In this document: positions 10,682-55,494 of the stretch, one piece after another
Layout of the letters: each line of letters opens with the position of its first letter
Numbering within the stretch: position 1 is the stretch's first letter
Source of the DNA: Escherichia virus TH32
Sequence record: MT446405.1
DNA: 64,000 bases
Strand: one strand, 5' to 3'
The notes under the pieces: generated by a model
Told to the model about the DNA's origin: nothing
Databases searched by the model: none
The model's input: only the letters and a program-made list of their open reading frames with translations
Position numbers and translations under genes: made by a program

Positions 10682-10779
10682 CCACCCTCAAATAAGTATT
10701 GTGTATTATATCTAATGAAAAAAACTTAGGCAAACAATAATTATGGTTTGAATATGTATAACAACCGATATAGCCGCGC

Positions 10780-11060
10780 CTTTATTAGTGTGATACGGAT
10801 GATACGGATAAAATGAGGCGTATTTTTATCCGTATCGGTGTATAAGCCGCGCTATCACTGGTGTGCTACGGATGATACGGATGATACGGATACTTTTCAT
10901 ATATAAGAGTTTATAAAAAAATAAAATTAAATTAGATATATAATTTTAAATTAATTTATTTGAATTCCTATATAGTACTGCGGCAACGCGTATCATCCGT
11001 ATCATCCGTAAGATTCTTTTGAAAACAACAACTTACTTGATACGGATGATACGTCATTAT
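10780..11060. repeat. Iteron cluster: 9-bp tandem GATACGGAT-type repeats in both orientations flanking an ~85-bp AT-rich spacer
   Basis: tgatacggatgatacggata (10791), ctacggatgatacggatgatacggatac (10866), AT-rich 10895-10975, cgtatcatccgtatcatccgtaagatt (10989), gatacggatgatacg (11039). Same motif family recurs at 26.97-27.3 kb. Confidence 0.7.
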
Positions 11061-13025: not shown

Positions 13026-15434
13026 TCAACCTTGCTTCGGTGAATTAGTAGGATTATTGAGTGCTCCATATGCTTGAGAGCAATCACCCTTCAACCACTC
13101 CTTGAATGAGTTTACATCCAATTCGTGGATTGAGTCAAATCCATTCCAACCGTTACCAAATGATGCTTGATAAGCTTCTTTCGCTTCTTCTGCTGAATCA
13201 AATCCAAGCATACACTTGTGTTCATCAAATTCGCCAGAATAATTATCATTTTGGTTAACGATAAAGACTTTCGGCGACTTCATATTTGGACCAACAAAGC
13301 AGTCGACTTCATCGTCGTCTGCACCCTTGGTGCCTTTGATGAATCCGTAGTGGTGCGACATCTTCACTGCCCATTCACCGTCAAGGCTGTTCCCTCTACG
13401 GATGCTGTTGCGAGGATTCTCAATACCAAGAATCATCCCGTGCAACTTCATCTTAGGTAATGATGCTGCGTCCATTTTACCAACGTTATGGCGTAAGTTT
13501 ACGACGTTCCCTTTGACGCTTGGAAGGGTAGACGGTTGCACCGACCGTGAATCTTTTTGAGGGTCAAAATCCACATCCTGCCCTTCTTTCAGGTAGTAAT
13601 CAGCAATGCCCTCCAGACCTTCTTTCAACTGCGTTAGGACATCAACCTGATGGCTTGATTCATCATCGGTATCGTCCATGTTGATTTCGACAGGTGCTCT
13701 GTCAGGGTTTTCCGCCAACTCACCACGCGCGGCACCTTCTGGCATAATACCTGTTTCGCTATAGAACTGGCCGCCCATCTTAACGACATCAGCTTTCGCC
13801 TGCTCAATATCGGCCTTACCTTGCAGGACTTCACCAGCAGACTTGCCAAGCAATGCCATATTCTCTGGAGACATTCCTGGGGTTTCTTCTGCTGCGTCTT
13901 CCGGCAGACGGTTGTAGCCGCTGTTTTTGTCGTCTTTGATGCGGTCGCGCTCTTCATCAGGAGAAATGACGCCAGCATCAATAAGAGTTTTGCCAGTGTT
14001 AGCTCGCTTGTCGTTGATTTCTGCAAGTTGAGTAGCAGTAAGTGAGCCAACTGGTTCCCATGCAACCTTAACGTCGACTTCCACCCCTTCTGATTTGAGA
14101 AGGATTTTATAATGGCGGTCGAGAATTTTTGTCAGGTCATGCTGCTGGCACGTTTCCAACTCTTCGTGATAGCTGACCATCTCGAATTCACCAGTGGCGT
14201 TAAAGCCTTTTGGCGAAGTACCAAGCAGTTTGGTCGACGGAACTTTTGCGATTGCGGCCACCAGCTGGTACTGGTTCATGATGATGCTGTCGAAGTCTGA
14301 CAAGTTAATGTCGAACTGGTCCATCTCTTCTTTTTGGCCAAGCACTTTGACTGCATAGTTGTCGCGATACTTGATCCACATCATCAGACGTTCGGCAAAA
14401 GACCGCTCATTGGCAATCGCCTTGTCAACGTCGGTCCGCAGCGTGGTTGTACGCTTGGACATCGCCAGCAATGGCGCTTCGTTAGCGGTGCGTTCAGCGG
14501 CATAGATGCGTTCATAAATCTGCTGAGTCAGAGGAATGCCGCCGTAAATATAAGTCGGCTTTAGAATATCAGCTGGCTCATCGTTGCGCAAGATGATTAG
14601 GTGGCTGCGATGATAACGCTGGCCGCTGATCACCCAGTATTCTGGATCATAGAAGTGCTGTGATGCAGGGTCGGCGGTGTTTTCAGACGTCAAGAATGGC
14701 ATCATCCAATAAGGGTCAACCTGAATAATTCCCTTATAAGACCCTTTTGTCACACCATCGATGTTAAAAGGTTTGCTATAATATTCTGGGTCATCGCTGC
14801 GCACGTCAAATATGATGACGCGAATGCCAAAAATATTCTTGAATCGTTCGGCTTCAACTAAGTGCTCTTTGATATTAAATTCTTTATCAATTTGCTTTAG
14901 GCGTTCGCTGGCCTGTACTGACAATTCCGACTCAGAACTGGATTTGACTTCCCAGCCTTTACGGACCGCATCGCGGCCTACCATGGAACAAGCCTTGTTC
15001 ACCAGCCAGTGCTGCGCGATGATGGCGCAAGCTTGATATCCGATAAATGATTGCGATAAGTACCAGTTTTGCAACTGAATAGGTACTGTGTATGGATTAA
15101 CCTGCCCTTCTGAACTGATGTTCTTCAAGGCATTGTCCATAACTTTTTTGGATACGGTTGCTGAATCTACTGAGCGACCTTTGATGATTGCAACACCGTC
15201 CCCGTTGATATCAGGCTCATATAAAGGAAAGTCATCAACGGTTTTAAAGGTCGGGCGGTTGCTTTCGGTCTTATCCCAGCGTTGACCGCTGCCGCGCCTT
15301 TCCAGGCGTTCAAACGGTGCCAATGGGTCGCCTGGCGGCATCTCCGCTTGTTCGGCTTCTGGTTGCGTCTTCTCCCAGAGTTTTATGCCAAGAATTTTCA
15401 TTGTTAACGCCACCTGACAGTGAAAGGGAATCAA
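13026..15434 (-). CDS. Portal protein (putative)
   Basis: 802-aa ORF between the large terminase and the MuF-like head gene, the canonical position for portal. Size and position only. Confidence 0.5.
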   Translation of the reverse strand: MIPFHCQVALTMKILGIKLWEKTQPEAEQAEMPPGDPLAPFERLERRGSGQRWDKTESNRPTFKTVDDFPLYEPDINGDGVAIIKGRSVDSATVSKKVMDNALKNISSEGQVNPYTVPIQLQNWYLSQSFIGYQACAIIAQHWLVNKACSMVGRDAVRKGWEVKSSSESELSVQASERLKQIDKEFNIKEHLVEAERFKNIFGIRVIIFDVRSDDPEYYSKPFNIDGVTKGSYKGIIQVDPYWMMPFLTSENTADPASQHFYDPEYWVISGQRYHRSHLIILRNDEPADILKPTYIYGGIPLTQQIYERIYAAERTANEAPLLAMSKRTTTLRTDVDKAIANERSFAERLMMWIKYRDNYAVKVLGQKEEMDQFDINLSDFDSIIMNQYQLVAAIAKVPSTKLLGTSPKGFNATGEFEMVSYHEELETCQQHDLTKILDRHYKILLKSEGVEVDVKVAWEPVGSLTATQLAEINDKRANTGKTLIDAGVISPDEERDRIKDDKNSGYNRLPEDAAEETPGMSPENMALLGKSAGEVLQGKADIEQAKADVVKMGGQFYSETGIMPEGAARGELAENPDRAPVEINMDDTDDESSHQVDVLTQLKEGLEGIADYYLKEGQDVDFDPQKDSRSVQPSTLPSVKGNVVNLRHNVGKMDAASLPKMKLHGMILGIENPRNSIRRGNSLDGEWAVKMSHHYGFIKGTKGADDDEVDCFVGPNMKSPKVFIVNQNDNYSGEFDEHKCMLGFDSAEEAKEAYQASFGNGWNGFDSIHELDVNSFKEWLKGDCSQAYGALNNPTNSPKQG

Positions 15435-15563
15435 TCTATATTATAAATATTCATGTGTTTGTAAGCAAATGATATGTATAGTAATCATAAATAGTTCATA
15501 AAATATTTTGCTTTTGTATCATTTTGAGTTATATTTTAGTTAACCAAACGAAAGGAGATTGAA

Positions 15564-15980
15564 ATGAGCACAACAATTGTATTTGTCGTCCTTCATCAAG
15601 GCGAAGTGGTAAACGTATGCGAATATGAAGAGCTGGCAAAAGCCACTGCTGCGCGATATGAAGGTGCCACAGTTGACCCTTGGATTTTGGATGCGCGAAA
15701 CGTGTTGCAGGCGACCATGGATGAGTGGCTTTTAGGTCGCAAGGTGTATCCGGTTGAAAACATCGAATCCATTCAAGGTGAAACAGTATACTTTGAAGAT
15801 GAATGCGTTCGCGGCATTGGTAAATTTATTGGATTGTGCCCATCTTCATCCAAAAATAAATTTTATCGTATTCAAGTTGAAGAGAACGATATGTTCGACA
15901 AAGTAACGCGCTCGATTGTTCCTGGCGGCGGCACTCCAATCTTTATGGCAGAATCAGACATCAAGGGGATCATCAAATGA
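15564..15980 (+). CDS. Hypothetical protein
   Basis: 138-aa plus-strand ORF with AAAGGAG RBS, in the gap between portal and terminase genes. Confidence 0.45.
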   Translation: MSTTIVFVVLHQGEVVNVCEYEELAKATAARYEGATVDPWILDARNVLQATMDEWLLGRKVYPVENIESIQGETVYFEDECVRGIGKFIGLCPSSSKNKFYRIQVEENDMFDKVTRSIVPGGGTPIFMAESDIKGIIK

Positions 15981-41001: not shown

Positions 41002-41847
41002 GTGAACATGGCCGAAGCAATCAAAGTATTATCTAAAGAAGAAAAACAAGCAGCTGCAGCAGAACGTCGTCGCGTGGCTGAAGAGAAACGCCTGGCTAAA
41101 AAGAAAGAAGCCGAAGAAAAACGCCAGAAGCGTGAGCAGGAAAAACAAGCCAAGCGTGAAGAAGCTGCGCTGAAACGCAAGCAGGCTGCTGATGAGAAGG
41201 CTCAGAAGCGTGCTGAAGAAGCGGCTAAGAAAGCTAAAGAGCGTGCAGAAAAGGCTGCTGCTAAGAAAGCAGAGCGTGAAGCCGCTAAAGCAGCAAAAGA
41301 AATCGAAAAGGCAAAGGCTAAAGAAGAAGCCAAGCGCCTGAAAGCTGAACAAGCTGCTGCTAAGAAAGCAGAGCGTGATCAAGCCCGTGCTGCAGCGAAG
41401 GCCGAAAAAGAAAAGGCCAAAGAAGAAGCTAAAGCGAAACGCAAGGCAGAGCGTGAAGCTGCTAAGATTGCGGCGAAAGAAGCTGCAGAACAGCAGAAAG
41501 AACAGCGCAAGAAAGAAGCTGAAGAGCGTCGCAAAGCGATTGCAGAGCGTAAAGCCGCCAAGAAAGCTAACGGTCAGCGTCGCGCTAAAGCAACTCACTT
41601 TGTTTACACCGGAAACGGCCTGAGCCAGCCGCAAGAGCATTCCACCCGTGGACGCGTTCTGGCGGCGATCAAAGAAGGCGAAATCGGTCAGCCGCAGTCT
41701 ATCGACGAGCTGGGTGAAAAAGTTAAAGATCAGCTGTTTGGCGCTTCCGTTCGCTCTTACCTGAGCAAGCTGGAAGAGATGGGCCACATCGAGTTCATCG
41801 ATGTTGAATCCAATGACGATGCCGAAGACGGTGATCAAGCGGAATAA
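41002..41847 (+). CDS. Lys/Ala/Glu-rich repeat protein (histone H1/TolA-like low complexity) with structured C-terminal domain
   Basis: About 190 aa of KAEREAAK/KEEAK repeats followed by a non-repetitive C-terminal ~90 aa; followed by a strong terminator. Confidence 0.5.
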   Translation: MNMAEAIKVLSKEEKQAAAAERRRVAEEKRLAKKKEAEEKRQKREQEKQAKREEAALKRKQAADEKAQKRAEEAAKKAKERAEKAAAKKAEREAAKAAKEIEKAKAKEEAKRLKAEQAAAKKAERDQARAAAKAEKEKAKEEAKAKRKAEREAAKIAAKEAAEQQKEQRKKEAEERRKAIAERKAAKKANGQRRAKATHFVYTGNGLSQPQEHSTRGRVLAAIKEGEIGQPQSIDELGEKVKDQLFGASVRSYLSKLEEMGHIEFIDVESNDDAEDGDQAE

Positions 41848-41875: not shown

Positions 41876-41903
41876 GACCCACACTTGTTGTGGGTCTTTT
41901 TTC
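41876..41903 (+). terminator. Intrinsic terminator
   Basis: gacccaca-cttg-ttgtgggtc hairpin followed by tttttt. Confidence 0.65.
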
Positions 41904-41981: not shown

Positions 41982-42977
41982 ATGAACATGAAACAACCTG
42001 TAATGATTATCGGCGGCGGACTGGCAGGACTTATCACCGCTTGCCACTTCCCAAACTCCATTGTGTACGAAGCAGGGGAACGAGCGCCACAGCACAAGGC
42101 GCTACTACGCTTTCGCGGCGAAGAAGTAAGCCGTATTACCGGAATCCCTTTTAAGGCCGTGACAGTTGACAAGGCTGTGTATTTTCGCGGCAACTACTAC
42201 CACGACCATTGCCCAATCAACCTTGCCAATATGTATTCCATGAAGGTCACCAATCAGTTTGGCAGCCGTTCAATCATGAAGCTTAAAACTGCAACGCGTT
42301 ATATTGCGCCTGATGACTTTTATGATCAACTTGTCGATAAGCTTGGCGACCGTATATTCTTCAATACTCCGGTCGACACCCTCTGCGGCTATAGCGAGAC
42401 GCCAATCATCAATACATCGCCGCTGCCCGTCATGATGAAGCTTGCTGGTATTGATCAAAAGCTCGACTTCTCGTTTGATAAGGCAAATATACGCGTTTAT
42501 CGTTTTAAGATTAAGCGCAAGTGTGAACTGTATCAAACAATTTACTTCCCTGACTATTCTGTAAGGACTTACCGCGCATCAATTACTGGTGACACGCTGA
42601 TTATCGAAACAATTCCATTGGTAAGCGTCAGCGCGGCAGCAGTTGAAGCCGCTGGCGGCATTACCCGTTATCGCGACATGAAGTTGCGTGCAGAAGTGGA
42701 CGAAGTTCTGACCGCTTTTGGTCTTTCATGGAATGACATCTCTTTGGAAGAAGTTGAAAAGGTTGACCAGAAGTATGGCAAGATTGTCGACATTCCTAAA
42801 GACTTGCGCCACGCCTTACTGCTCCAGCTGACCATGGATTTGAACGTATTTAGTGTCGGTCGCTTTGCTACTTGGCGAAACATTTTGCTTGATGACGTTG
42901 CTCATGACCTTGTTGAAGTTGAAAAACTCATCAAAGCAAATAACTATCAAAAATTTGCTTATATTGCTAATAAATAA
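41982..42977 (+). CDS. FAD/NAD(P)-binding oxidoreductase
   Basis: N-terminal Rossmann dinucleotide-binding motif VMIIGGGLAGLITACHF ... YEAGER. Confidence 0.5.
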   Translation: MNMKQPVMIIGGGLAGLITACHFPNSIVYEAGERAPQHKALLRFRGEEVSRITGIPFKAVTVDKAVYFRGNYYHDHCPINLANMYSMKVTNQFGSRSIMKLKTATRYIAPDDFYDQLVDKLGDRIFFNTPVDTLCGYSETPIINTSPLPVMMKLAGIDQKLDFSFDKANIRVYRFKIKRKCELYQTIYFPDYSVRTYRASITGDTLIIETIPLVSVSAAAVEAAGGITRYRDMKLRAEVDEVLTAFGLSWNDISLEEVEKVDQKYGKIVDIPKDLRHALLLQLTMDLNVFSVGRFATWRNILLDDVAHDLVEVEKLIKANNYQKFAYIANK

Positions 42978-43042
42978 TTTGCTTTCTGCTTCAATGGGCG
43001 TATACTTTAATCATTGAAGCAGAACTCATAGAGGAAACGAAA

Positions 43043-43489
43043 ATGAAACGAATCACTGGAATCGCGCTTGCCGCGACTGCTATTCTCGGAACCATGTATA
43101 TGGAAGCGACTGAAGCCGCTGTCCGTACTTCCGATTCAATCGCCGTGTATGATTGCGAAGCGATGGACGGTAAAACCGCAGCAACCACTGGCGCAACTAT
43201 CACAGCTTACATCGGCGTGAACGAGCAAGAAGGTTTGAACATTCAGATTCAAGGATTCACAGGGAAAGGTGCCAACCGTACTCCGTGGATGCAACGTTTC
43301 ACTTTCGTTCAGCCTCGTTCAACTGGCGGCTTCATCAACCTCATTGGTGAAAACCGTTCTGGTGCAGAAATCTTTACATCAATGAGTTCTAATGATGAAC
43401 CAAAGAAAAGTTTTCAGTTGCTTTATAACGCACAATTCGTTTATCATTGCACCTTCTCTGGTGATCAGCAACTAGTGAATTACCGTTAA
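43043..43489 (+). CDS. Predicted secreted protein
   Basis: N-terminal signal-like segment MKRITGIALAATAILGTMYMEA; GAGGAAACGAAA RBS. Confidence 0.4.
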   Translation: MKRITGIALAATAILGTMYMEATEAAVRTSDSIAVYDCEAMDGKTAATTGATITAYIGVNEQEGLNIQIQGFTGKGANRTPWMQRFTFVQPRSTGGFINLIGENRSGAEIFTSMSSNDEPKKSFQLLYNAQFVYHCTFSGDQQLVNYR

Positions 43490-43502
43490 TAGGATAATTA
43501 AA

Positions 43503-44333
43503 ATGAAAGTTGAATTAATTCGATACACCCAAAATGCACTTGACCTTTTGCTGGAAACAAAGAACACGCGCATGACTGGCAAGCCCGTCTCTGAGATGAC
43601 AGAATCAGAGAAGCAAGAGCACTGGCGCTACATGCTTGACACCATCAAGTCACCTTTCGACTTTGTTGACTATATCTTTGACATCACTGATGTATCAAAG
43701 AATATGACTCATCAAATGGTGCGCACACGAACAGGTGCATATCAAGAACGAACAAGCCGCGCTCAGGAGTCTTCTGCCTTTGATGCGATTCGTCCGAAGG
43801 CATTTTCACACCAAAATCCAGAGTTGATTGATCACTGTGAAGCATTTGGAACTGATGAAGAGCAACAATCTTTACTTCAAAAGCAATACTTAGCAGAGAA
43901 GTGGGATGACGCAATGGCGACTATCGATGCTTTGTATCAAGAACTTCGCGCGGCTGGCGCAGAGATTCAAGATGCACGTGCCGTGTTGCCTTCTAATATG
44001 CAAACGCATATCATGGCAAAGTTCAACTTGCGCACCCTGCAGCAAATGGCCTCTAACCGCTTGTGCACGCGCACTCAAGGCGAGTATCAAGAAGTATTCC
44101 GTGCAATGGTTGCGGAAGTCCTTAAGGTGCACCCGTGGGCTAATCCTTTACTACAGCCGCAGTGCATCGGTATGGGTAAGTGCGCATTTCCTCGTCACGG
44201 TAAGGCCCATTGCCCTTGGTATCGTGATTGGATGGATACCACGGCACAGCAAGAAGAGTTGCGCATCCAGTTTTGGAGTGCAATGCCAATCACCAACAAT
44301 CCAGTTGCTAAAGATGGAGTATCAAAAGGATGA
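43503..44333 (+). CDS. ThyX-like (flavin-dependent thymidylate synthase family) candidate
   Basis: RTR-x8-S segment (VRTRTGAYQERTSRAQESS) resembling the ThyX RHR-x7-S signature and a downstream LRTLQQMASNRLCTRTQGEYQ block; divergent, so tentative. Confidence 0.4.
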   Translation: MKVELIRYTQNALDLLLETKNTRMTGKPVSEMTESEKQEHWRYMLDTIKSPFDFVDYIFDITDVSKNMTHQMVRTRTGAYQERTSRAQESSAFDAIRPKAFSHQNPELIDHCEAFGTDEEQQSLLQKQYLAEKWDDAMATIDALYQELRAAGAEIQDARAVLPSNMQTHIMAKFNLRTLQQMASNRLCTRTQGEYQEVFRAMVAEVLKVHPWANPLLQPQCIGMGKCAFPRHGKAHCPWYRDWMDTTAQQEELRIQFWSAMPITNNPVAKDGVSKG

Positions 44334-45202
44334 GCATTAAAAACAGCGAAATCTTAAACGTATTCGACCTTGACGGAACGCTGTTTGATGACCGTTGGCG
44401 CTTAGACCGCATCAAGGTGGCAGGTCCGTTGTCAGACTATGATGACTATCACAGCGGTATTGGTTATGATCAGTTCTATCCTCACATTGCATCAGCAGTA
44501 GAGGCTGCATCTCTTCGCGGTGAGGCGGTTGAATATTGGACTGCAAGACCAGAAAAATACAGACAAGTGACTTTTGAGCGTCTGGACAATGTTTTCCCTT
44601 TTGATGAATTTACAATCAAGATGAGAGACTCTGGCGACAAACGTCCATCAACTATTATGAAATCTGCATGGCTATCGCACGCTTTGCGGCACGGCGATTA
44701 TCGAATCATCAATGTATTCGACGACCGACAAGACGTACTCGCGCGGATGCAAGATGAAGCATTGTATTATAACTCCGTTGCTCAAAATAAAATCGCTTTT
44801 ACATTTAATCTTTGCAAAGCAGGTGAAGTGGTGCAACAATTAGCAATTGATCCAAGCGCAACAGGGCAAGAAGATACTAAGGCTGTGGAAGTTGAACAAT
44901 CTCCGGCAACTGCCGCCGATATTCTTGATGCGATGGCCGCGACCTTCCGTGAGCGCAACGCCGTTTATGGCGATAACGCTGTGATGGTGGGCCAGGTGAT
45001 GCAAGTTCTCTTCCCTAATGGCGTCACGTTGAAAACGCCGGAAGACTACCACATGTGGCACCTCTTCGAGCTTAAGATTGTCAAGCTTACACGCTTCGCA
45101 ATCAGCGGCCTGAAGCACGAAGACTCTATACACGATGATGGTGTTTACAGCGCCATGTGTGAACGTCTTGTGAACACCCATAATATTAATTTCAATAAAT
45201 AG
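44330..45202 (+). CDS. HAD-superfamily phosphatase-domain protein with C-terminal domain of unknown function
   Basis: HAD motif I FDLDGTLFDD at the N-terminus, FDDRQD-type motif later; C-terminal ~140 aa unassigned. Confidence 0.5.
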   Translation: MSIKNSEILNVFDLDGTLFDDRWRLDRIKVAGPLSDYDDYHSGIGYDQFYPHIASAVEAASLRGEAVEYWTARPEKYRQVTFERLDNVFPFDEFTIKMRDSGDKRPSTIMKSAWLSHALRHGDYRIINVFDDRQDVLARMQDEALYYNSVAQNKIAFTFNLCKAGEVVQQLAIDPSATGQEDTKAVEVEQSPATAADILDAMAATFRERNAVYGDNAVMVGQVMQVLFPNGVTLKTPEDYHMWHLFELKIVKLTRFAISGLKHEDSIHDDGVYSAMCERLVNTHNINFNK

Positions 45203-45267
45203 TTTACTTGTGCGTTTCGATGAGTTATATTTATCTCATCGAAACGAAGTCCAAAAAGGATAAATAA

Positions 45268-45951
45268 ATGAAAAAGGTAATTGTTGTAACAGGTGCCAAT
45301 TCCGGTCTTGGTAAATCTATTTTTGACACCCTTGGCGCTTACGGTCACGAAGTCGTCGGAATCGATTTAGAGAACGGCTATGACATTCGTAACGCAAAAC
45401 AGATGAAAGAACTTCTTAGCGGTTACGACGTAGAAGGCTTGATCAACTGTGCTGGCGTAAACTCTAACAACTGGTTTGAAGACGTCGATTATGAAGAGTT
45501 TAATCGCGTTATGCATACTAACGCATTCTCTTTCGTCAACACAACACAGGCTGCGTTGAAAAGTCTTGTCGATAATAAAGGCTTTGTTATTAACATTGTC
45601 TCTAACGCCGCGCATATTCCTATGACGTCCAGTTTGTGCTATAATGCATCCAAGGCCGCTGCGCTTATGATCACTAAGCAGATGGCGCACGAGCTTACGC
45701 CTAAATACGGTATTACGGTATTCTCTATTAGTCCGAACAAGTTGCGCGGCACTGGCATGTCTAAACAGATTGAAGATGCTGTTTGTGCAACTCGCGGGTG
45801 GACCCCTGAGTATGCCGCTGAATACCAGAAAAAGGCATTGATGAACGGATTGGAGACTGAGCCGCAAGTAATTGCTGACTTCATTCGCCATATCTTAATT
45901 ACGGGCGCATGGCGCTTTATGTCTGGTACTGATATTCCATTTGGGAAATAA
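45268..45951 (+). CDS. Short-chain dehydrogenase/reductase (SDR)
   Basis: TGANSGLGK cofactor-binding motif and YNASK catalytic motif. Confidence 0.65.
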   Translation: MKKVIVVTGANSGLGKSIFDTLGAYGHEVVGIDLENGYDIRNAKQMKELLSGYDVEGLINCAGVNSNNWFEDVDYEEFNRVMHTNAFSFVNTTQAALKSLVDNKGFVINIVSNAAHIPMTSSLCYNASKAAALMITKQMAHELTPKYGITVFSISPNKLRGTGMSKQIEDAVCATRGWTPEYAAEYQKKALMNGLETEPQVIADFIRHILITGAWRFMSGTDIPFGK

Positions 45952-45954
45952 ATC

Positions 45955-46170
45955 ATGAACAAAGCCTGGTTAGCGGTGATTGGTCTGGTCCTTCTGGTTG
46001 TATTGGGATACACTATCAAATTTGAAGTTCCAAATCCTGCTGAGCCTGACAAAAAGATTGTCGTTGAAGTACCAGGCGCGAAAGGGGAATTACCAAAACC
46101 TAAATTCGAAGTGGTAACGCCTGCGCCTGAAAAACCGCAGGACTCTGATAACACCGTAATCAATAAGTGA
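45955..46170 (+). CDS. Small membrane protein
   Basis: 71 aa; N-terminal TM AWLAVIGLVLLVVLGYTI. Confidence 0.35.
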   Translation: MNKAWLAVIGLVLLVVLGYTIKFEVPNPAEPDKKIVVEVPGAKGELPKPKFEVVTPAPEKPQDSDNTVINK

Positions 46171-46303
46171 GATTATGGAAGAAGAATTTAACATCCCTGG
46201 TCTGGATGAAGAAAAAGACTATGCTGCTGAAGTAGTCAGCAAAGAAGAAACTCATGAAGCCGACAACGTTTGCGGCGATGCTTGTAAAATCTAAGGAAAC
46301 AAA

Positions 46304-46855
46304 ATGCCACATTTTAAAATTGAACAAATCGCCCTGTCAATTCCAGATGCTCAGCGCGCACAGGATTTCTTGGCTAAAATCGGCCTGACAGAATGGTTCC
46401 ATGATCATGTTGTTGCTACTGGTCGCGTATTTGAAGCTGATGACTTTAAAGGTCGTCGCGACGATTGCACCAATGAAGCTGACTTGCGCTTCAACTATCA
46501 GGCTGGCAACGGTACTGATGGCAGAGCTGGTAAGCCTCTTGAGCTTGAAATCCTTGACTACACAATGGGCTGCAACTGGATTAACGAAAACATCGAATAT
46601 ATCGATGCGCATGACAATCAGGTCAGCCACCTTGGCATGCACGTGACTGCCGCTGAACTTGCTGAATGGCGTAAGTTCTTTAAAGAAGAAGGTATTCAGG
46701 TTGCACAGGAAGTTGTAACTGACTCTCATACCAACCCGAACATTGCTGGTCAACGTCGTTACAACTATGTGATCTTTGATACGCGTGAAATCATCGGCGT
46801 TGATTTGAAGTTTATCGTGCGCTTGAATCAAGACGGTACTCCGTACACCGTATAA
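46304..46855 (+). CDS. Hypothetical protein (possible VOC/glyoxalase-like fold)
   Basis: 183 aa with His/Glu-containing blocks (WFHDH, LELEILDY, HLGMHV) loosely resembling metal-binding VOC proteins. Confidence 0.3.
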   Translation: MPHFKIEQIALSIPDAQRAQDFLAKIGLTEWFHDHVVATGRVFEADDFKGRRDDCTNEADLRFNYQAGNGTDGRAGKPLELEILDYTMGCNWINENIEYIDAHDNQVSHLGMHVTAAELAEWRKFFKEEGIQVAQEVVTDSHTNPNIAGQRRYNYVIFDTREIIGVDLKFIVRLNQDGTPYTV

Positions 46856-46871
46856 CGAATCGTGAATCTGT

Positions 46872-46897
46872 GGCCGTCCTAATGGGCGGCCTTTTTG
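46872..46897 (+). terminator. Intrinsic terminator
   Basis: ggccgtcc-taat-gggcggcc hairpin followed by tttttg. Confidence 0.6.
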
Positions 46898-46909: not shown

Positions 46910-47452
46910 GTGTTATTTCTCCCTTATGACTTCGAAACAACCGGATTGACCGTGCACCCGAAAGCGCCGCTTGGGATGCAGCCGCGCCCTATTGAATTTG
47001 CAGGTCTGTTGACAGACGGCAAAGAGATTCTTGAAACGTTTGAATTCATAATTAATCCTGAAATCGTGATTGAAGAAATTATCACAAAGATTACCGGATT
47101 AACAAATGAAGATATTGAGTGCAATCCACCGTTCATCAATTTCGTCCCGCAGCTAAAAGAAATATTCAAGAAGACTGATGCAACTATCGCGCATAACCAT
47201 GCGTTCGATAAAAACATTCTTGATTATGCACTACAGCGCGAAGGACTTACGCTTGATGATGTTAATTTTCCAGAAATAAACATATGTACAGTTGAGCAAA
47301 CCTTGCCTATTTTTGGCCGAAGAGTTAAGCTTCAAGAGCTGTATGAATTATATTTCGGAAAATATGAACAGAAGCACCGTGCATTAGACGACGTAATATT
47401 ACTGCACAAAGTCTGCCAACAAATTGGTGTATATGACATCTGGAGTAAATAA
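46910..47452 (+). CDS. DnaQ-like 3'-5' exonuclease (DEDDh proofreading subunit)
   Basis: Exo I YDFETTGL, Exo II HNHAFDKNIL, Exo III HRALDDV; GTG start after AGGAGG RBS; stop overlaps the DnaE start. Confidence 0.7.
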   Translation: MLFLPYDFETTGLTVHPKAPLGMQPRPIEFAGLLTDGKEILETFEFIINPEIVIEEIITKITGLTNEDIECNPPFINFVPQLKEIFKKTDATIAHNHAFDKNILDYALQREGLTLDDVNFPEINICTVEQTLPIFGRRVKLQELYELYFGKYEQKHRALDDVILLHKVCQQIGVYDIWSK

Positions 47453-50349
47453 TGTTTCCACAATTGAGAGTTCGCAGCGGTTACACGTTCAAAGAAGTTT
47501 ATGGACGGCACCCTGAAATTATAGCACGGCTCAAAGAGTTGGGCTGCGAAGTCGCGGCATTAGTTGATAACAACACATGGGGTCATGTCCGCTGGGAAAA
47601 GGAATGCCAGAAAAATTATATTAAGCCTATGTTTGGGATGGAGATTCCAATCATCGACCCTGATGCGGACCCGAAAAAGGGATTCAAACCGAAGGCTTGG
47701 ATTCTTGCGCTTGATTTAAAATCTTTCTACAACGCAACCACGCTTGCAACCAAAAAGGGCGGCTTAACCCGTGCAGAGTTCGGTGCGCTTGATGGCGTAG
47801 TTAAATTCTGTGGCGGTGCCGTGGAGCTGTTGCGGCCAGAGGACTATGACTATATAGACGTCAACCCATCATCGTTCCTTTTGGCAAAGCGCCAGGTATT
47901 GGCTCATCGCGCAGGAGGAAGGCCGCTGGTTTTAACCGGATACAATCACATGCCTTCACCTGAGCACGTTGACTTTGCTTATGCTTGGGAAGTGCGCGAC
48001 ACGGTTAAGCCGCACTGCATCGTAAGCGATGAAGAGTTGCGGAGTCAACTAAAAGGTATTCTTACAGAAGACGAGCTTGCACAGGCAACTTCAAATGCCA
48101 TTGACATCGCAAATGGCATAGTCGGGCTTGACCTTAAACTGCGCAAGGCTCCGATTATTCACCTTGCAGGCGACATGGTAAAACTTGCTCGTGAGGGGAT
48201 GGAGTACCGTCTAAAAGCAGGTCACATCAAAGAATGGACTCAGGAATATGAGGACCGCTTCAACGAAGAAATTCATCAGATTCAGCTGAAAGATTTCGAC
48301 TCATACTTTCTGGTGGTAGCGGACCTTGTACGATTCGCAAAAACAAAAATGCTCGTCGGTCCTGCGCGCGGCTCATCGGCTGGTTCACTGGTTTGTTATT
48401 GCTTAGGCATCACGGAAGTGGACCCAATCCCGTATAAGCTGCTGTTTGCCCGATTCATCGACGTAAGCCGCGCCGACCTTCCTGACATCGACATCGACTT
48501 TGAAGATACCAAACGCTATATGGTGTTTGATTATCTTAAAGAGAAATACGGCGAAATGAACGTTGCAAAGCTTGGCAACATCAACACGCTTAAGGCCAAC
48601 TCAGTAATGGCTCAAGTTGGTAAGAAGTTCAACATTGGATACCACGAAACAGCCAACATTAAAAACGCACTGCTTGAATACTCATCCGGTGACGCCCGTT
48701 ATGGTCACGGCCTGGAGGATACCTTTGCAACAACGACCACGGGTCAAGAGTTCGTGGCTAAATATCCTGATGCCGCGCGTTGCATGGGTGACCTTGAGAT
48801 TCACCCGTCCCACACAGGTGTTCACGCAGCGGGAATCATTGTGTGTAATGACCCAATCTCTGATTACTGTACTGTAACTGCAGAAGGGATTGCGCAAATC
48901 GATAAGCCTGACAGCGAATACCTCAACCTTTTGAAGCTTGATGCGCTGGGCCTTCGTACTCTCGGCATTATTTCTGATACAGGCGTTATTGATGCTGAAA
49001 CGCTCTACGGAATCAAGCTTGATGATCAAAGCGTCCTTGACATTCTTAACGAAAACAAGATGTCAGGCATCTTCCAGTTTGAAGGTGATGCTGTACGTTC
49101 AGTAACAAACTTTGTGCACGTCGACAACTTTAACAAAATCGACAACCTGACGGCTTTGGGTCGACCTGGCCCGTTGTCATCCGGTATGGCCCAGAAATAC
49201 ATTGAACGCGCGGCAGGGCGTGCGCCGATTGAATACGACGTGCCGCAGCTTGAGCCGTACTTAAAAGAGACTTACGGCGTGTTTCTTTACCAAGAGCAAA
49301 TCATGGCCGTGGTTAAAGAGATTGGTTCATTTGACTGGGCGAAAACGTCAGCTGTACGTAAGGCGATGTCAGGCCGTAAGGGTGAGGAATACTTTAACAA
49401 GCTTGGCGAGGACTTTGTTGCAGGCGCAATCAATAACGGCGTACCGGAAGCGGATGCAAGAAAGCTTTGGCAAGCGATGGCTACGTTCGGGTCATGGGGC
49501 TTTAACAAGTCACACTCCGTGTCATACGCGGTCGTGACCTACTGGACCTTGTGGCTTAAGCGACACTACCCGTTGGAATTTGCCGCTGCCTGCTTACGCG
49601 CTGCTAAGGACGAAGACCAGACGATTGCGATATTACGTGAACTTGCAAAGGAAGGCGTGGATTATGTGCCAATCGACCCTGATCACTCTTCGATGAACTG
49701 GACCATCGCGAACGGAAAGCTAATCGGCGGCATCATGAACGCGAAAGGGTACGGCATGGTGAAGGCGATGAAGTACATCGAAGCGCGTGAAGCCGGAACC
49801 TTAACGCAGAAACAAAAGGACGCATTGGCCAATGCTGAAGTAAAATACGGCGACCTTACAGAGATGCACACAAAGTTCGGCTGGGCGTATAATGACCCGT
49901 ATCTGATTGGGGTGACGTCCGGCGCTTCAATACGCCAGATGAAGGAAGTCGGTGATGACGAGCGCGCAATAGTAATCGGCAAGTTGACAAAGAAGGTGCT
50001 TGCGGACGAGAACGAAGCAACACGCATCCGTAAACGACTTGAGCGCGGCATCTATACAAAGCACGGCAAGCTTAAAAAGGGTCTTCAAGCTGATGGCCGC
50101 TACGCAGAGTTTGACCAGTACGGGAACAAGCTTGAGACTCAGTTCATCGACCTTATGTGCAAAGACGACTCGACCGACTCGCCAATGCGCTTCAGGATTC
50201 GTCCAGAGAAGTTCCAGAAGTACGGGAAGTACATCGCTGAAAACGTCGGGAACGGCGCATTCTTCCTGATGAAAGGTCGTAAGCTTGAAGGCATTGACAT
50301 GTTCATCGTTGACGTGATCAAACAGGTGTATCCAGATGGCAACAAATAA
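47452..50349 (+). CDS. dnaE: DNA polymerase III alpha subunit (DnaE-type replicative polymerase)
   Basis: 965 aa; N-terminal PHP-like region; GPARGSSAGSLVCYCLGITEVDP matches the conserved DnaE motif. Confidence 0.8.
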   Translation: MFPQLRVRSGYTFKEVYGRHPEIIARLKELGCEVAALVDNNTWGHVRWEKECQKNYIKPMFGMEIPIIDPDADPKKGFKPKAWILALDLKSFYNATTLATKKGGLTRAEFGALDGVVKFCGGAVELLRPEDYDYIDVNPSSFLLAKRQVLAHRAGGRPLVLTGYNHMPSPEHVDFAYAWEVRDTVKPHCIVSDEELRSQLKGILTEDELAQATSNAIDIANGIVGLDLKLRKAPIIHLAGDMVKLAREGMEYRLKAGHIKEWTQEYEDRFNEEIHQIQLKDFDSYFLVVADLVRFAKTKMLVGPARGSSAGSLVCYCLGITEVDPIPYKLLFARFIDVSRADLPDIDIDFEDTKRYMVFDYLKEKYGEMNVAKLGNINTLKANSVMAQVGKKFNIGYHETANIKNALLEYSSGDARYGHGLEDTFATTTTGQEFVAKYPDAARCMGDLEIHPSHTGVHAAGIIVCNDPISDYCTVTAEGIAQIDKPDSEYLNLLKLDALGLRTLGIISDTGVIDAETLYGIKLDDQSVLDILNENKMSGIFQFEGDAVRSVTNFVHVDNFNKIDNLTALGRPGPLSSGMAQKYIERAAGRAPIEYDVPQLEPYLKETYGVFLYQEQIMAVVKEIGSFDWAKTSAVRKAMSGRKGEEYFNKLGEDFVAGAINNGVPEADARKLWQAMATFGSWGFNKSHSVSYAVVTYWTLWLKRHYPLEFAAACLRAAKDEDQTIAILRELAKEGVDYVPIDPDHSSMNWTIANGKLIGGIMNAKGYGMVKAMKYIEAREAGTLTQKQKDALANAEVKYGDLTEMHTKFGWAYNDPYLIGVTSGASIRQMKEVGDDERAIVIGKLTKKVLADENEATRIRKRLERGIYTKHGKLKKGLQADGRYAEFDQYGNKLETQFIDLMCKDDSTDSPMRFRIRPEKFQKYGKYIAENVGNGAFFLMKGRKLEGIDMFIVDVIKQVYPDGNK

Positions 50350-52616: not shown

Positions 52617-52864
52617 TGAGTAAAAAAGTTCTGTTAATTGGGCCGCGTAACTCCGGCAAGACTACCAGTGCAAATAAAATTGCCGAAGTCATGGGACTTG
52701 CAGAAATATTTGAGCTTGACGGATTCAAAGTGCCAAACGGTTATAAGTTGCGCGATGACGTTGATGCCCTGTTTATAGCATCAAAACTTCCTCGCGGAAT
52801 CCGTCGAGAACATTTTGACATAGTCATTGAAATTAATAAGGGGTACATAAATGTCAACTATTAA
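52616..52864 (+). CDS. Small P-loop NTPase-like protein
   Basis: Walker A-like LIGPRNSGKTT. Confidence 0.4.
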   Translation: MSKKVLLIGPRNSGKTTSANKIAEVMGLAEIFELDGFKVPNGYKLRDDVDALFIASKLPRGIRREHFDIVIEINKGYINVNY

Positions 52865-53408
52865 CTGGGAAGATGATCTGCCGCAAGTAGCTCCTGAAAG
52901 TATTCAAGAGCGCCTTGCGCGCTTAGTATCTGAACTGGCAGAACGCCAAGAAGCTTTGACAGAGCTTGAAGATGAAGCTGATATGCAAAAGCAGCGCATC
53001 AGTGAAATCAAAACTGTTCTGCTTCCTGGCGTTATGGATGAGCTTGGTGTGTCCGAAATCAAGCTTGAGGACAAGACCAAAATCAAGGTCGAGTCCAAGG
53101 TGAACGCTTCAATCAAGAAAGAAAACGAATTAAAAGTTTTCGATTGGCTTGTAAACAACGGTTACGGCGGCTTGATCAAGTCCAGCGTCACGGCTGAGTT
53201 CGGTCGCGAAGAAATTGAACAGGCGCAAGAGATTGTTGCCGCGCTGCGTGAAGATGGTGTTGAAGCCACGTTGAAACAAGGCGTTCATTCTGCTACACTG
53301 AAGTCGTTTGTAAAAGAACAGCTGGAAGCAGGCAATCCAGTTAGTGAAGATATTAGCGTTTTTGAATACAAAGAAGCTAAAATAACCTTGCCTAAAAGCA
53401 AAAAGTAA
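52851..53408 (+). CDS. Hypothetical acidic coiled-coil protein (possible recombination-associated)
   Basis: 185-aa acidic helical protein located ahead of a 286-aa candidate annealing-type protein. Speculative. Confidence 0.35.
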   Translation: MSTINWEDDLPQVAPESIQERLARLVSELAERQEALTELEDEADMQKQRISEIKTVLLPGVMDELGVSEIKLEDKTKIKVESKVNASIKKENELKVFDWLVNNGYGGLIKSSVTAEFGREEIEQAQEIVAALREDGVEATLKQGVHSATLKSFVKEQLEAGNPVSEDISVFEYKEAKITLPKSKK

Positions 53409-53467
53409 TTTAACCTTTATCTTGAAATCAGGTTGCCACGAAACTTGATACTATAGGAAAATATCAA

Positions 53468-54328
53468 ATGTCTAAGAAAGAAACTACCGAAGTTGCAGTG
53501 AAAAACACCCAGATGTCCGCTATGGCTGATTTTGTCGACATGACCGATTTTGGCGCTGGTTTTGAAGGTGCCGATGCCGATGCGTATGCCATTCCTTTTA
53601 TCGTCGTCCTGCAGAAGATGTCTCCTATGGTCGACGAAGATGATCCAAAACACGTTCCTGGCGCAAAAGCCGGAATGCTTTACAACACCGTTACTGGTGA
53701 GTTGTATGACGGTAAGAAAGGCGTGCAGATCATCCCTTGCGCATTCAAACGCACCTTCATTCTTTGGGGCGGTCGCGAGTCCGACGATAAAGGCTTTAAA
53801 GGTGAATTTACCAAAGAGCACGTTGATGCAGAAGTCGCGGCAGGCCGCGCTGTTGAGATCAACGGTAAGGTATTCGTGCCTGACGAAAACGGCAAGGTGC
53901 ACGAGAAGAAATCGCCTTACTACGCAGATACACGCAACCACTTTGTGATTCTGTTGAACGAAGAAACTGGTGAATTTGGTAGCGCAATGCTGTCTCTGAC
54001 TTCTTCCATGATCAAGCCGTCTCGCATGCTGATGACCGCTCTGCAGCAGAAGAAAGTTCAGACTCCGCAGGGTCTGAAAACGCCGCCGACCTTTATGAAC
54101 ATCGTTCGCATGGGTACTGCATCCCAGTCCAAAGACGGCAACACATGGTCAGTTCTGAAGTTTGAGCTGGAAGGTCTGGTGCAGGACAAAGGTCTGTACG
54201 AAGTCGCCAAGGCATTCCACAACGACGTGGTTGGCGGCAACGTTAACATTGACCGCAGCAAGCAGGAAGAAGCAAGCGGTGCCGCTGGTCCTGTCAATGA
54301 AACTCCGACCGACGCAGAAGAGTTTTAA
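53468..54328 (+). CDS. Hypothetical protein (candidate single-strand annealing/recombination protein)
   Basis: 286 aa, size and position typical of phage recombinases; no definitive motif seen. Confidence 0.3.
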   Translation: MSKKETTEVAVKNTQMSAMADFVDMTDFGAGFEGADADAYAIPFIVVLQKMSPMVDEDDPKHVPGAKAGMLYNTVTGELYDGKKGVQIIPCAFKRTFILWGGRESDDKGFKGEFTKEHVDAEVAAGRAVEINGKVFVPDENGKVHEKKSPYYADTRNHFVILLNEETGEFGSAMLSLTSSMIKPSRMLMTALQQKKVQTPQGLKTPPTFMNIVRMGTASQSKDGNTWSVLKFELEGLVQDKGLYEVAKAFHNDVVGGNVNIDRSKQEEASGAAGPVNETPTDAEEF

Positions 54329-54385: not shown

Positions 54386-54904
54386 ATGATAGAAAGAATT
54401 GTACCGCTCCTGAAGATTCTTGCCCTTGTTGGCGCGTTTGCCGCTGGATCATACGTTGAAGACCTGCAGCAAACCAACGCATCACTGACCAAGGATAATC
54501 AATATCTGAAATCGCTTAATGAGCGTAAGGACAAGATAAATGCACTCGAAGAGCAAATTGCATCTTTACAGGTTGAATCGGCATCGGCATATGAGAAAGG
54601 TCGCCAGGAAGCGCAACTGGTTGCTGATGACACTATTGCTCGTTACAAGTCTGGGAATATCAAGCTGCGCGCGCAACTCAGCTGCTCCCGTGAGTTACTC
54701 AGGCGTGTGCCCGACTCTGCGACCACTGGACGCCTCTCTATCCCAGAAGGAAACTGTGGACTATCAGAAGATGATGTCAGATTTCTTGTTCAGTTCGCCG
54801 CAGAAACAAATCGATTAAAAGAGAAAGTTAATAGCTTGATTGATACTTATAATCAGGCTAAAATAAAAATCGATCAATTCAATGCATCAAAGGAAAATAA
54901 ATGA
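54386..54904 (+). CDS. i-spanin (Rz-like)
   Basis: N-terminal TM (IVPLLKILALVGAFAAGSYV) followed by long coiled-coil; contains an embedded lipoprotein ORF in another frame. Confidence 0.55.
   Translation: MIERIVPLLKILALVGAFAAGSYVEDLQQTNASLTKDNQYLKSLNERKDKINALEEQIASLQVESASAYEKGRQEAQLVADDTIARYKSGNIKLRAQLSCSRELLRRVPDSATTGRLSIPEGNCGLSEDDVRFLVQFAAETNRLKEKVNSLIDTYNQAKIKIDQFNASKENK
54591..54818 (+). CDS. o-spanin (Rz1-like lipoprotein) embedded in the i-spanin gene
   Basis: Alternative frame: MRKVARKRNWLLMTLLLVTSLGISSC with lipobox I-S-S-C, Pro-containing mature part with a second Cys. Start could instead be at 54540 or 54627. Confidence 0.5.
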   Translation: MRKVARKRNWLLMTLLLVTSLGISSCARNSAAPVSYSGVCPTLRPLDASLSQKETVDYQKMMSDFLFSSPQKQID

Positions 54905-55494
54905 AACAGATTTATGCAAACATTCGCCAGTGGGCTTCTGACCGTAACATCATCCAAGGTTGCGACCTTAAGGACCAATACCCGAAGCTTATCAGCGAGT
55001 TTGGGGAGTTAACCGACCACGTTGATCAACTCCATGACCTTGTGTTCTTTGACCCTGAAATTGGATATACAGAGCAGGCCATCTGTGACCTGCAGGCCGC
55101 AATCAAGGACGACATTGGTGATTGTCTTGTTGTGTTAACCATCCTGGCAGCGCAAAACGGTGCTGAAATCGAAAGCATCAATGGCGGCGGTTGTGCCGAT
55201 AAAGGGGCGCACCCTCATTCATTCATTCTGCGTTTGGCAAAGACCCTTGGCCGACTTGGTGATGCGGTCGCTAAGAATCAGACCATGGATATTGATGTCA
55301 CTATCATGGCCGCAGTCGATTATCTTTCTGGTGTTGCTCACGATTACGGCCTGCGCCTTTCGGACTGTGCCCAGGCGGCTTATGAAGACATCAAGGACCG
55401 TAAAGGCGTGATGTATAACGGAACGTTCATCAAGTCGACTGATTCAACCTATGCTTATGCCATGGAACAAGTAATGAATGAGGGGAAAGAGTGA
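54901..55494 (+). CDS. MazG-like nucleotide pyrophosphohydrolase
   Basis: EExGE-type motifs LISEFGELTDHV and DDIGDCLVVLTILAAQNG. Confidence 0.45.
   Translation: MKQIYANIRQWASDRNIIQGCDLKDQYPKLISEFGELTDHVDQLHDLVFFDPEIGYTEQAICDLQAAIKDDIGDCLVVLTILAAQNGAEIESINGGGCADKGAHPHSFILRLAKTLGRLGDAVAKNQTMDIDVTIMAAVDYLSGVAHDYGLRLSDCAQAAYEDIKDRKGVMYNGTFIKSTDSTYAYAMEQVMNEGKE

Follow-up and report, generated by a model that had tools for sequence, protein, structure and literature searches.

The 64,000-nucleotide stretch of Escherichia virus TH32 DNA considered here (record MT446405.1; "the window" below means this whole stretch) represents nearly the entire genome of a Wifcevirus phage. At positions 41982–46855, just ahead of the genes for a DnaQ-like exonuclease and a DnaE-type polymerase, it carries a block of six genes, g1 to g6. 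We propose that five of these (g1, g3, g4, g5 and g6) form a conserved module that makes, or helps to make, a sugar-type hypermodified thymidine in phage DNA, a reading for which we judge the chances to be evenly balanced. The evidence for the module as hypermodification machinery is circumstantial, and our confidence in the individual steps assigned below is much lower than that in the module as a whole. The initial annotation of the window had listed the six genes as a flavin adenine dinucleotide (FAD)/NAD(P)-binding oxidoreductase, a secreted protein, a divergent ThyX-like protein, a HAD phosphatase fused to an additional domain, a short-chain dehydrogenase/reductase (SDR) and a possible VOC-fold protein. 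All six are present at these positions on the plus strand, with DnaQ/DnaE directly downstream. The suggestion that they constitute a nucleotide or DNA modification module is retained in part: hypermodified thymidine has been detected by liquid chromatography coupled to mass spectrometry (LC-MS) in the sister genus Pbunavirus, which shares the core of the module, while the link from genes to modification is one that we infer.

In nucleotide sequence, the region 41982–46855 is 90–95% identical to that of 28 Wifcevirus genomes, and more distant matches come from about 140 genomes of Pbunavirus and related phages. Wifcevirus phages are E. coli and Shigella myoviruses of ~68–72 kb, and the matched members include Bas98–101, FEC19, WFH/WFC, ECML-117 and Mansfield. 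The trio formed by the flavoprotein g1, the ThyX-like g3 and the HAD–DUF6378 protein g4 has a near-identical distribution, in about 360 of 50,697 phage records (361 for g1, 363 for the ThyX-like protein at coverage of at least 80%, and 373 for HAD–DUF6378). Gene order was read from local tblastn searches and annotated records. The order flavoprotein, ThyX-like, HAD–DUF6378, SDR, VOC-like, DnaQ, DnaE is found in Wifcevirus, Kylevirus (Pantoea), Myosmarvirus (Serratia) and Carpasinavirus (Xanthomonas), and the same order of the five module genes recurs in five metagenomic contigs with diverse HAD–DUF6378 homologues. Pbunavirus (phiKTN6, F8 and 14-1) and a 40-kb Ralstonia phage have the trio only, again beside DnaQ/DnaE, the SDR and VOC-like genes being absent in Pbunavirus. 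The trio recurs in unrelated 207-kb Rhizobium phages; in RHph_Y65, it (gp191, gp196 and gp205) lies within 6 kb among dUTPase and ribonucleotide reductase genes; in every other relative examined, the DnaQ/DnaE neighbourhood is the same. The module is conserved in phages of Pseudomonas, Xanthomonas, Serratia, Rhizobium and Ralstonia.

Individual relatives add to this core. In one, the gene for a class-I S-adenosylmethionine (SAM) methyltransferase separates the SDR gene from the VOC-like gene (locus L014, 4497–5360), another has a second, stand-alone HAD_PNKP protein inside the module (locus L013, 5898–6395), and the Serratia HAD–DUF6378 protein contains an inserted Cys/His-rich domain of ~190 aa (locus L009, 4145–5569). 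A fixed core with lineage-specific additions has, by analogy, the look of biosynthetic tailoring clusters, and would be unexpected for unrelated morons. Two of the public RHph_Y65 annotations (positions in locus L002) look wrong: gp191 (9858–10820), labelled "polysaccharide deacetylase", is a homologue of the g1 flavoprotein, and gp205 (15151–15873), labelled "phosphoheptose isomerase", is a HAD phosphatase fused to DUF6378.

In virion DNA of Pbunavirus F8 and 14-1, LC-MS revealed novel nucleosides (362 and 390 U) in place of about one quarter of the thymidine (Yee et al., bioRxiv 2025, PMC12191111). The modified thymidines sit at TG, and the two nucleosides were read as thymidine derivatives, one of a tetrose sugar-alcohol type and one of a cyclised aldopentose type; F8 virion DNA resisted all five tested enzymes that have TG in their site, and was cut by five that do not (PMC12191111). 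That study names no biosynthetic genes for the modification, and neither do the papers that cite it; our literature search likewise found no Pbunavirus modification genes, and no restriction digest or LC-MS of a Wifcevirus phage. The masses correspond to 5-hydroxymethyl-deoxyuridine (5-hmdU) plus a tetritol minus H2O and 5-hmdU plus a pentose minus H2O, respectively, or to isomeric C-linked forms, such as deoxyuridine plus a pentose plus 2H minus H2O. In the window, 26% of all T is followed by G, which fits the replaced quarter if every TG is modified. On our proposal, the base made by the Wifcevirus module would be the counterpart of the 362- and 390-Da thymidines of F8 and 14-1.

Wifcevirus phages resist all but one of the six restriction systems tried against them, and have "no known protection mechanism". 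Site avoidance was considered as the sole cause of this resistance and rejected, because sites occur in both Bas98 (36 EcoRI, 6 EcoRV, 5 EcoKI, 4 EcoCFT_I, 93 EcoCFT_II and 82 EcoP1 sites) and the window (14 EcoRI sites). Some other short sequences deviate from expectation in the window: GATC is much rarer (105 observed against 254 ± 18 expected), XbaI and BsaI sites are nearly absent (1 against 9.8, and 1 against 16.6), and HindIII sites are commoner (51 against 26).

Proteins of the module

For g1, the initial assignment as an oxidoreductase agrees with a GxGxxG motif, with Glu30, and with an AlphaFold2 model that is predicted to adopt an FAD-binding fold like that of UDP-galactopyranose mutase (UGM), a flavoenzyme of nucleotide-sugar chemistry. 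In the fold comparison, UGM with FAD is the nearest match to the model, but protoporphyrinogen and amine oxidases score nearly as high. In sequence, g1 does not belong among the UGMs; there is no match to Pfam GLF or NAD_binding_8, or to any other Pfam or NCBIfam model. Alignment with E. coli Glf by hhalign covered 21 N-terminal residues at a probability of 4%, and no relationship to Glf is detectable beyond the GxGxxG motif. PDB searches with the single sequence and with a profile also returned nothing beyond this dinucleotide-binding motif, so that the fold comparison alone is informative. At 331 residues, g1 is also shorter than UGM (365 to ~510 residues). The protein belongs to phrog_4828, which PHROGs lists with unknown function, and its family has ~1,900 metagenome members. 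Many Arg, Lys, Tyr and Trp residues are invariant in the family (R43, R45, K88, R96, R106, R198, K267, R294, W298).

The divergent ThyX-like protein of the initial annotation is borne out in g3, which matches Pfam Thy1 (PF02511) over the full profile (residues 5–212; 103.3 bits against a cut-off of 24.8, 1.8e-29). It falls below the cut-off of the thyX equivalog model NCBIfam TIGR02170 (79.5 against 87.9 bits). Residues were mapped by aligning a profile of 29 clade members to Thermotoga maritima ThyX and other solved ThyX proteins. In place of the ThyX signature RHR(X)7S followed by x-R-Y, g3 has RTR-TGAYQER-T-S-R-A, and these three exchanges (His to Thr, Ser to Thr, Tyr to Ala) hardly vary across the 29 members. 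On the T. maritima enzyme, the replacements are His53 to Ile, Arg74 to His, His79 to Thr, Ser88 to Thr, Tyr91 to Ala, His178 to Arg and Trp181 to Gly. The first of these affects a residue that stacks on the folate. The residues that bind deoxyuridine monophosphate (dUMP) and its phosphate are kept, with T. maritima Q75, R78, R80, R90, R147 and R174 corresponding to invariant Q71, R74, R76, R86, R159 and R186 in g3. Compared with T. maritima TM0449, M. tuberculosis ThyX and PBCV-1 A674R, g3 therefore shares the Thy1 family and these six equivalents, and differs in the RTR(X)7T motif, in the changes at His53, Arg74 and Tyr91, in its sub-equivalog score, and in a Cys-rich C-terminal extension.

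This extension (~60 residues) is a property of the g3 clade that canonical ThyX lacks, and contains four near-invariant cysteines (C188, C221, C227 and C237) that possibly form a Zn or Fe-S site. The four-Cys pattern is absent from the Rhizobium and Ralstonia phage homologues. Clostridium phage phiCP9O has a ThyX that keeps the canonical RHR..S.RY. The RTR motif was at one point considered as decisive evidence and has been dropped as such, since RQR together with the same Cys pattern occurs in a Gordonia phage without g1; taken alone, the motif is weak evidence, because similar non-RHR ThyX proteins are found in actinophages that have no partner genes.

In g4, HAD_PNKP matches residues 11–142, with HAD motifs I–IV and a cap-less PNKP-like core, in line with the HAD phosphatase noted initially. 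The domain that had been left without a name can now be assigned, its C-terminal ~100 residues belonging to DUF6378, a four-helix domain. The closest fold to the phosphatase part is T4 Pnkp phosphatase, and some g4 homologues give a faint match to Phage_T5_dNMPase; unlike the 3′-phosphatase domains of T4 and Clostridium Pnkp and T5 dNMPase, g4 is without a kinase domain and is fused to DUF6378 instead. An exhaustive HMMER search for DUF6378 gave 1,599 matches, and in a Pfam scan of 112 of these, HAD_PNKP was the sole fusion partner, DUF6378 otherwise standing alone. We rejected a reading of the C-terminal domain as a MazG-like NTP pyrophosphatase, as hhalign against the phage's own MazG-like protein gave a probability of 1%. 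A profile search of the PDB with this domain returned insignificant POU-domain matches alone (E ~0.1).

The SDR is a classical one, as first proposed (adh_short 4e-32, 111.7 bits), with the TGxxxGxG motif in VTGANSGLG and the catalytic Ser-Tyr-Lys residues, including YNASK; its best PDB matches are FabG and acetoin reductases (~1e-13), and no NCBIfam model reaches its cut-off. The VOC fold suggested for g6 is less secure. A Glyoxalase_4 match below the cut-off (in g6, E=0.0023; 18.6 bits against 27) recurs, equally weak, in all five orthologues tested, and no PDB sequence match was obtained; orthologues in Kyle, Hera and Carpasina are 51–73% identical. For g2, the signal-like N-terminal segment behind its earlier description as a secreted protein is present, but the gene is not conserved with the module: no tblastn match was found in the Kyle, Hera, Carpasina, Pbunavirus or Ralstonia loci, and no family match in Pfam, PHROGs or NCBIfam. 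We therefore take g2 to be Wifcevirus-specific, and probably not a pathway member. A 71-aa open reading frame (ORF) between g5 and g6 has no family match in Pfam or PHROGs and is not conserved outside Wifcevirus; relatives have small ORFs of varying size at that position.

Known modification systems and a candidate route

The thymidine hypermodification described in phages M6, ViI, PaMx11, SP10 and phiW-14 is post-replicative (Lee et al. 2018; Lee et al. 2021, PMC8989533). A ThyA-family dUMP hydroxymethyltransferase is followed by a P-loop 5-hmdU DNA kinase and an aGPT-Pplase amino-acid:DNA transferase, with tailoring by pyridoxal phosphate, radical-SAM, FAD or acetyltransferase enzymes, and amino acids or amines are appended (PMC8989533). 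As in those phages, the genes discussed here cluster with replication genes and include tailoring enzymes that vary among lineages (an FAD enzyme in PaMx11), and the presumed outcome is shared, i.e., part of the virion T with a bulky C5-methyl substituent that blocks restriction enzymes. Unlike in those phages, the C5 enzyme is ThyX-like and has a UGM-like flavoprotein as its partner, and what is appended in relatives is sugar-like. No ThyA-family dUMP hydroxymethyltransferase was found in the Bas98 genome annotation or in the window, the ThyX-like gene being the sole thymidylate-synthase-like gene. No 5-hmdU DNA kinase or aGPT-Pplase is annotated in the whole Bas98 genome or in the Mansfield locus, and ten larger ORFs of unknown function in the window (140 aa or longer) gave no Pfam match of the kinase or aGPT-Pplase type. 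The remark in the initial annotation that the gene combination matches no described pathway thus holds for the Bas98 annotation and the larger ORFs of the window. Because these canonical core enzymes are absent, a modification of the Pbunavirus type would need different enzymes here. Replication and structural genes aside, the conserved genes that look like enzyme genes are all in the block, and ThyX-like chemistry acts at uracil C5, which is the modified position.

Base J of kinetoplastids (beta-D-glucosyl-5-hydroxymethyluracil) offers another parallel, in that a sugar is carried on the thymine C5-methyl in DNA and is installed in a sequence- or region-selective manner, and the Pbunavirus masses are compatible with pentosyl-5-hmdU. 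Base J is made by Fe/2-oxoglutarate dioxygenases (JBP1/2) and a glucosyltransferase, neither of which is encoded here. In chemical terms, there is a likeness to MnmEG, TrmFO and RlmFO, where a flavin-N5 iminium transfers one carbon to uracil C5 in a flavin- and folate-dependent reaction, but these enzymes act on RNA substrates and have GidA/TrmFO folds, and no homology to them was found here. In the MnmEG reaction, a nucleophile captures the methylene intermediate, which is not reduced (PMC8989533), a chemical precedent for the mechanism that we propose.

In this mechanism, g3 would bind dUMP through the retained phosphate- and uracil-binding Arg and Gln residues, and add a one-carbon unit at C5 by flavin-N5 iminium chemistry. 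Because His53, His79, Ser88 and Tyr91 have been lost, we propose that the exocyclic-methylene intermediate could be trapped by water or by a sugar hydroxyl, to give a 5-hmdU-type or 5-alkoxymethyl-deoxyuridine product, instead of or besides deoxythymidine monophosphate (dTMP). The UGM-like g1 would process the sugar partner, either through covalent flavin–C1 chemistry or by ring opening and contraction, and g4 would act as a phosphatase, either on a phosphosugar adduct, perhaps one carried by DNA, or on nucleotides, which would bias the pool. In lineages that have both, the SDR and VOC-like proteins would tailor the sugar; as both are absent in Pbunavirus, the Wifcevirus base should be related to, but unlike, the Pbunavirus bases. 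A modified base of this kind would account for the broad restriction resistance of Wifcevirus. In its most specific form, which we offer tentatively and consider rather unlikely, the route would be flavin-only: ThyX- and UGM-derived enzymes would use covalent flavin-N5 chemistry to join C5 of deoxyuridylate, or its methylene, to a sugar or polyol, with finishing by the phosphatase–DUF6378 protein and, in most lineages, by the SDR and VOC-like proteins, and without a ThyA-type hydroxymethylase, DNA kinase or glycosyltransferase. Such a route might then be the source of the TG-specific base in Pbunavirus and of a related, still unseen base in Wifcevirus.

Competing explanations

Several observations weigh against a hypermodification module. 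Modification of Wifcevirus DNA is itself deduced from relatives and from restriction resistance, and one of the numerous small early ORFs could encode an anti-restriction protein that causes this resistance. Protection is not general, since Wifcevirus phages are fully sensitive to EcoP1_I. EcoRI and EcoRV sites have no TG, so that modification at TG only cannot explain the Wifcevirus resistance to both enzymes; Wifcevirus must then differ in the sequence context of its modification or use another protection. The TG specificity in Pbunavirus demands a step that reads DNA sequence, and no enzyme of the module is demonstrably a DNA enzyme. No glycosyltransferase or kinase appears in the whole-genome annotation of Bas98. 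The ThyX-like protein of Gordonia phage Sadboi has RQR and the same Cys pattern, and its phage group is without g1; since a non-RHR variant is also found in such partner-less actinophages, it may be a working thymidylate synthase. Finally, the flavoproteins of F8 and 14-1 (gp65) are 97% identical and their ThyX-like proteins (gp59) 94%, yet the modifications differ, and the determinant of this difference may lie elsewhere. Between the flavoprotein and DnaQ genes of these two phages, gp57 (the g4 orthologue), gp58, gp60, gp61 and gp63 are 78–83% identical, compared with 94–99% for flanking genes, and no gene gain or loss was found within the 14-kb stretch compared. Divergence thus peaks locally in this interval, between phages whose thymidine modifications are not the same.

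The main rival explanation, which we regard as possible but doubtful, is ordinary nucleotide metabolism beside the replicase. In this case g3 would be a functional, dTMP-supplying ThyX, and the HAD–DUF6378 protein a (deoxy)nucleotidase or 3′-phosphatase, like T5 dNMPase or T4 Pnkp. Redox or cofactor support, or unrelated auxiliary metabolism, would be the task of the flavoprotein, SDR and VOC-like protein, and any DNA modification would come from other genes that have so far escaped recognition. Such an explanation agrees with the clear Thy1 membership of g3 and its complete set of dUMP- and phosphate-binding residues, with its position as the only thymidylate synthase of the genome, with the T5 dNMPase and T4 Pnkp resemblances of g4, with the location of the Rhizobium phage trio amid dUTPase and ribonucleotide reductase genes, and with the similar non-RHR proteins of actinophages that lack partner genes. 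It leaves unexplained, however, why the UGM-like flavoprotein, HAD–DUF6378 and this ThyX clade share one phyletic pattern, and why the SDR, VOC-like and sometimes methyltransferase genes are syntenic with the trio. ThyX is not known to require partner enzymes beyond NADPH and folate. The score of g3 below the thyX equivalog cut-off also argues against a standard ThyX, and the proven Pbunavirus hypermodification would be left without a candidate enzyme.

We think it improbable that the module serves host takeover or counter-defence through a small molecule that it synthesises or breaks down, such as a nucleotide-sugar or a modified or signalling nucleotide, with no base in DNA involved. All of the enzymes, i.e., flavoenzymes, phosphatase, SDR and VOC, are of a small-molecule type, no DNA-binding or base-flipping domain was identified in the module proteins, and Wifcevirus is insensitive to every defence tested other than restriction–modification. 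On the other hand, no likeness to known anti-defence enzymes was seen, the names in PHROGs being generic only, the DnaQ/DnaE adjacency is invariant across very divergent relatives, and the DNA of relatives does contain a modification derived from thymidine, for which enzymes are required. An envelope-sugar pathway, in which the UGM-like enzyme, the SDR and the epimerase-like VOC protein remodel O-antigen or lipopolysaccharide, for example for superinfection exclusion, we hold to be very improbable. The UGM-like fold predicted for g1 would suit it, as would the dependence of Wifcevirus on the O16 O-antigen, which contains galactofuranose from host Glf, and the predicted signal peptide of g2 and hydrophobic helix of the 71-aa ORF. 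But neither of the latter two is conserved with the module, neither the annotation of Bas98 nor the larger ORFs of unknown function in the window revealed a glycosyltransferase, flippase or acyltransferase, and the surface glycans of the Pseudomonas, Xanthomonas, Serratia, Rhizobium and Ralstonia hosts are unrelated. Nor would such a pathway account for the obligate association of the module with the replicase and with a ThyX-like enzyme.

Gene layout, neighbouring genes and significance

Coordinates of the block and its borders are given in Table 1. Two strong terminators, predicted from the sequence, frame the genes from g1 to g6 as a transcription unit.

Table 1. Genes and predicted terminators in and around the g1–g6 block (window coordinates).
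Feature	Position	Strand	Details
Intrinsic terminator upstream of the module (predicted)	41876–41896	+	8-bp stem with 5 GC pairs, then T-run; Mansfield terminator annotated at the same spot
g1, orphan FAD-binding flavoprotein, predicted UGM/protoporphyrinogen-oxidase-like fold	41982–42977	+	331 aa
g2, signal-peptide-like N-terminus	43043–43489	+	148 aa; no family match
g3, divergent ThyX-like flavoenzyme	43503–44333	+	276 aa; Pfam Thy1
g4, PNKP-type HAD phosphatase (~1–178) and DUF6378 four-helix domain (~195–290)	44330–45202	+	290 aa
g5, classical SDR	45268–45951	+	227 aa; adh_short
Small ORF between SDR and VOC-like genes, N-terminal hydrophobic helix	45955–46170	+	71 aa
g6, VOC (glyoxalase/epimerase)-like, weak assignment	46304–46855	+	183 aa; sub-cut-off Glyoxalase_4
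Intrinsic terminator closing the module, just before DnaQ (predicted)	46872–46891	+	8-bp stem with 7 GC pairs, then T-run; Mansfield terminator annotated there
DnaQ-like exonuclease	46910–47452	+	RNase_T 2.1e-21; DNA Pol III epsilon in Mansfield
DnaE-type polymerase	47452–50349	+	DNA Pol III alpha in Mansfield

Just upstream of the module, the gene at 41002–41847 encodes a 281-aa protein whose N-terminal half is rich in Lys, Ala and Glu and resembles histone H1. Its conserved C-terminal domain (~90 aa) is common to Pbunavirus gp66 ("structural protein") and all relatives examined; the product may be a virion protein that associates with DNA. Two conserved proteins of the Pam3 gp33-like (DUF7307) and Pam3 gp34-like families are encoded at 52851–54328, beyond the SNF2 helicase on its downstream side, and this pair is syntenic in metagenomic relatives. 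A gene for a MazG-like pyrophosphatase, as it is named in Bas98, adjoins the ATP-dependent DNA ligase gene (54901–55494). Its product, which shows no relation to DUF6378, is the only other nucleotide-metabolism enzyme of the genome, and could matter for control of the nucleotide pool.

Pbunaviruses are among the phages most used in Pseudomonas therapy, and hypermodification of their DNA was shown only in 2025. The module described here provides a specific five-gene candidate that is shared by a very large phage lineage. Should the proposal be untrue, the tight co-inheritance of an orphan flavoprotein and HAD–DUF6378 with a ThyX variant would still want an explanation. If it is true, ThyX-like and UGM-like flavoenzymes would represent a new enzymology of DNA base hypermodification, with enzymes that could be used for installing sugar-like groups on DNA. 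The restriction resistance of Wifcevirus and its relatives would then be explained, and it could be predicted which phages are targeted by modification-dependent nucleases, e.g., of the END family.

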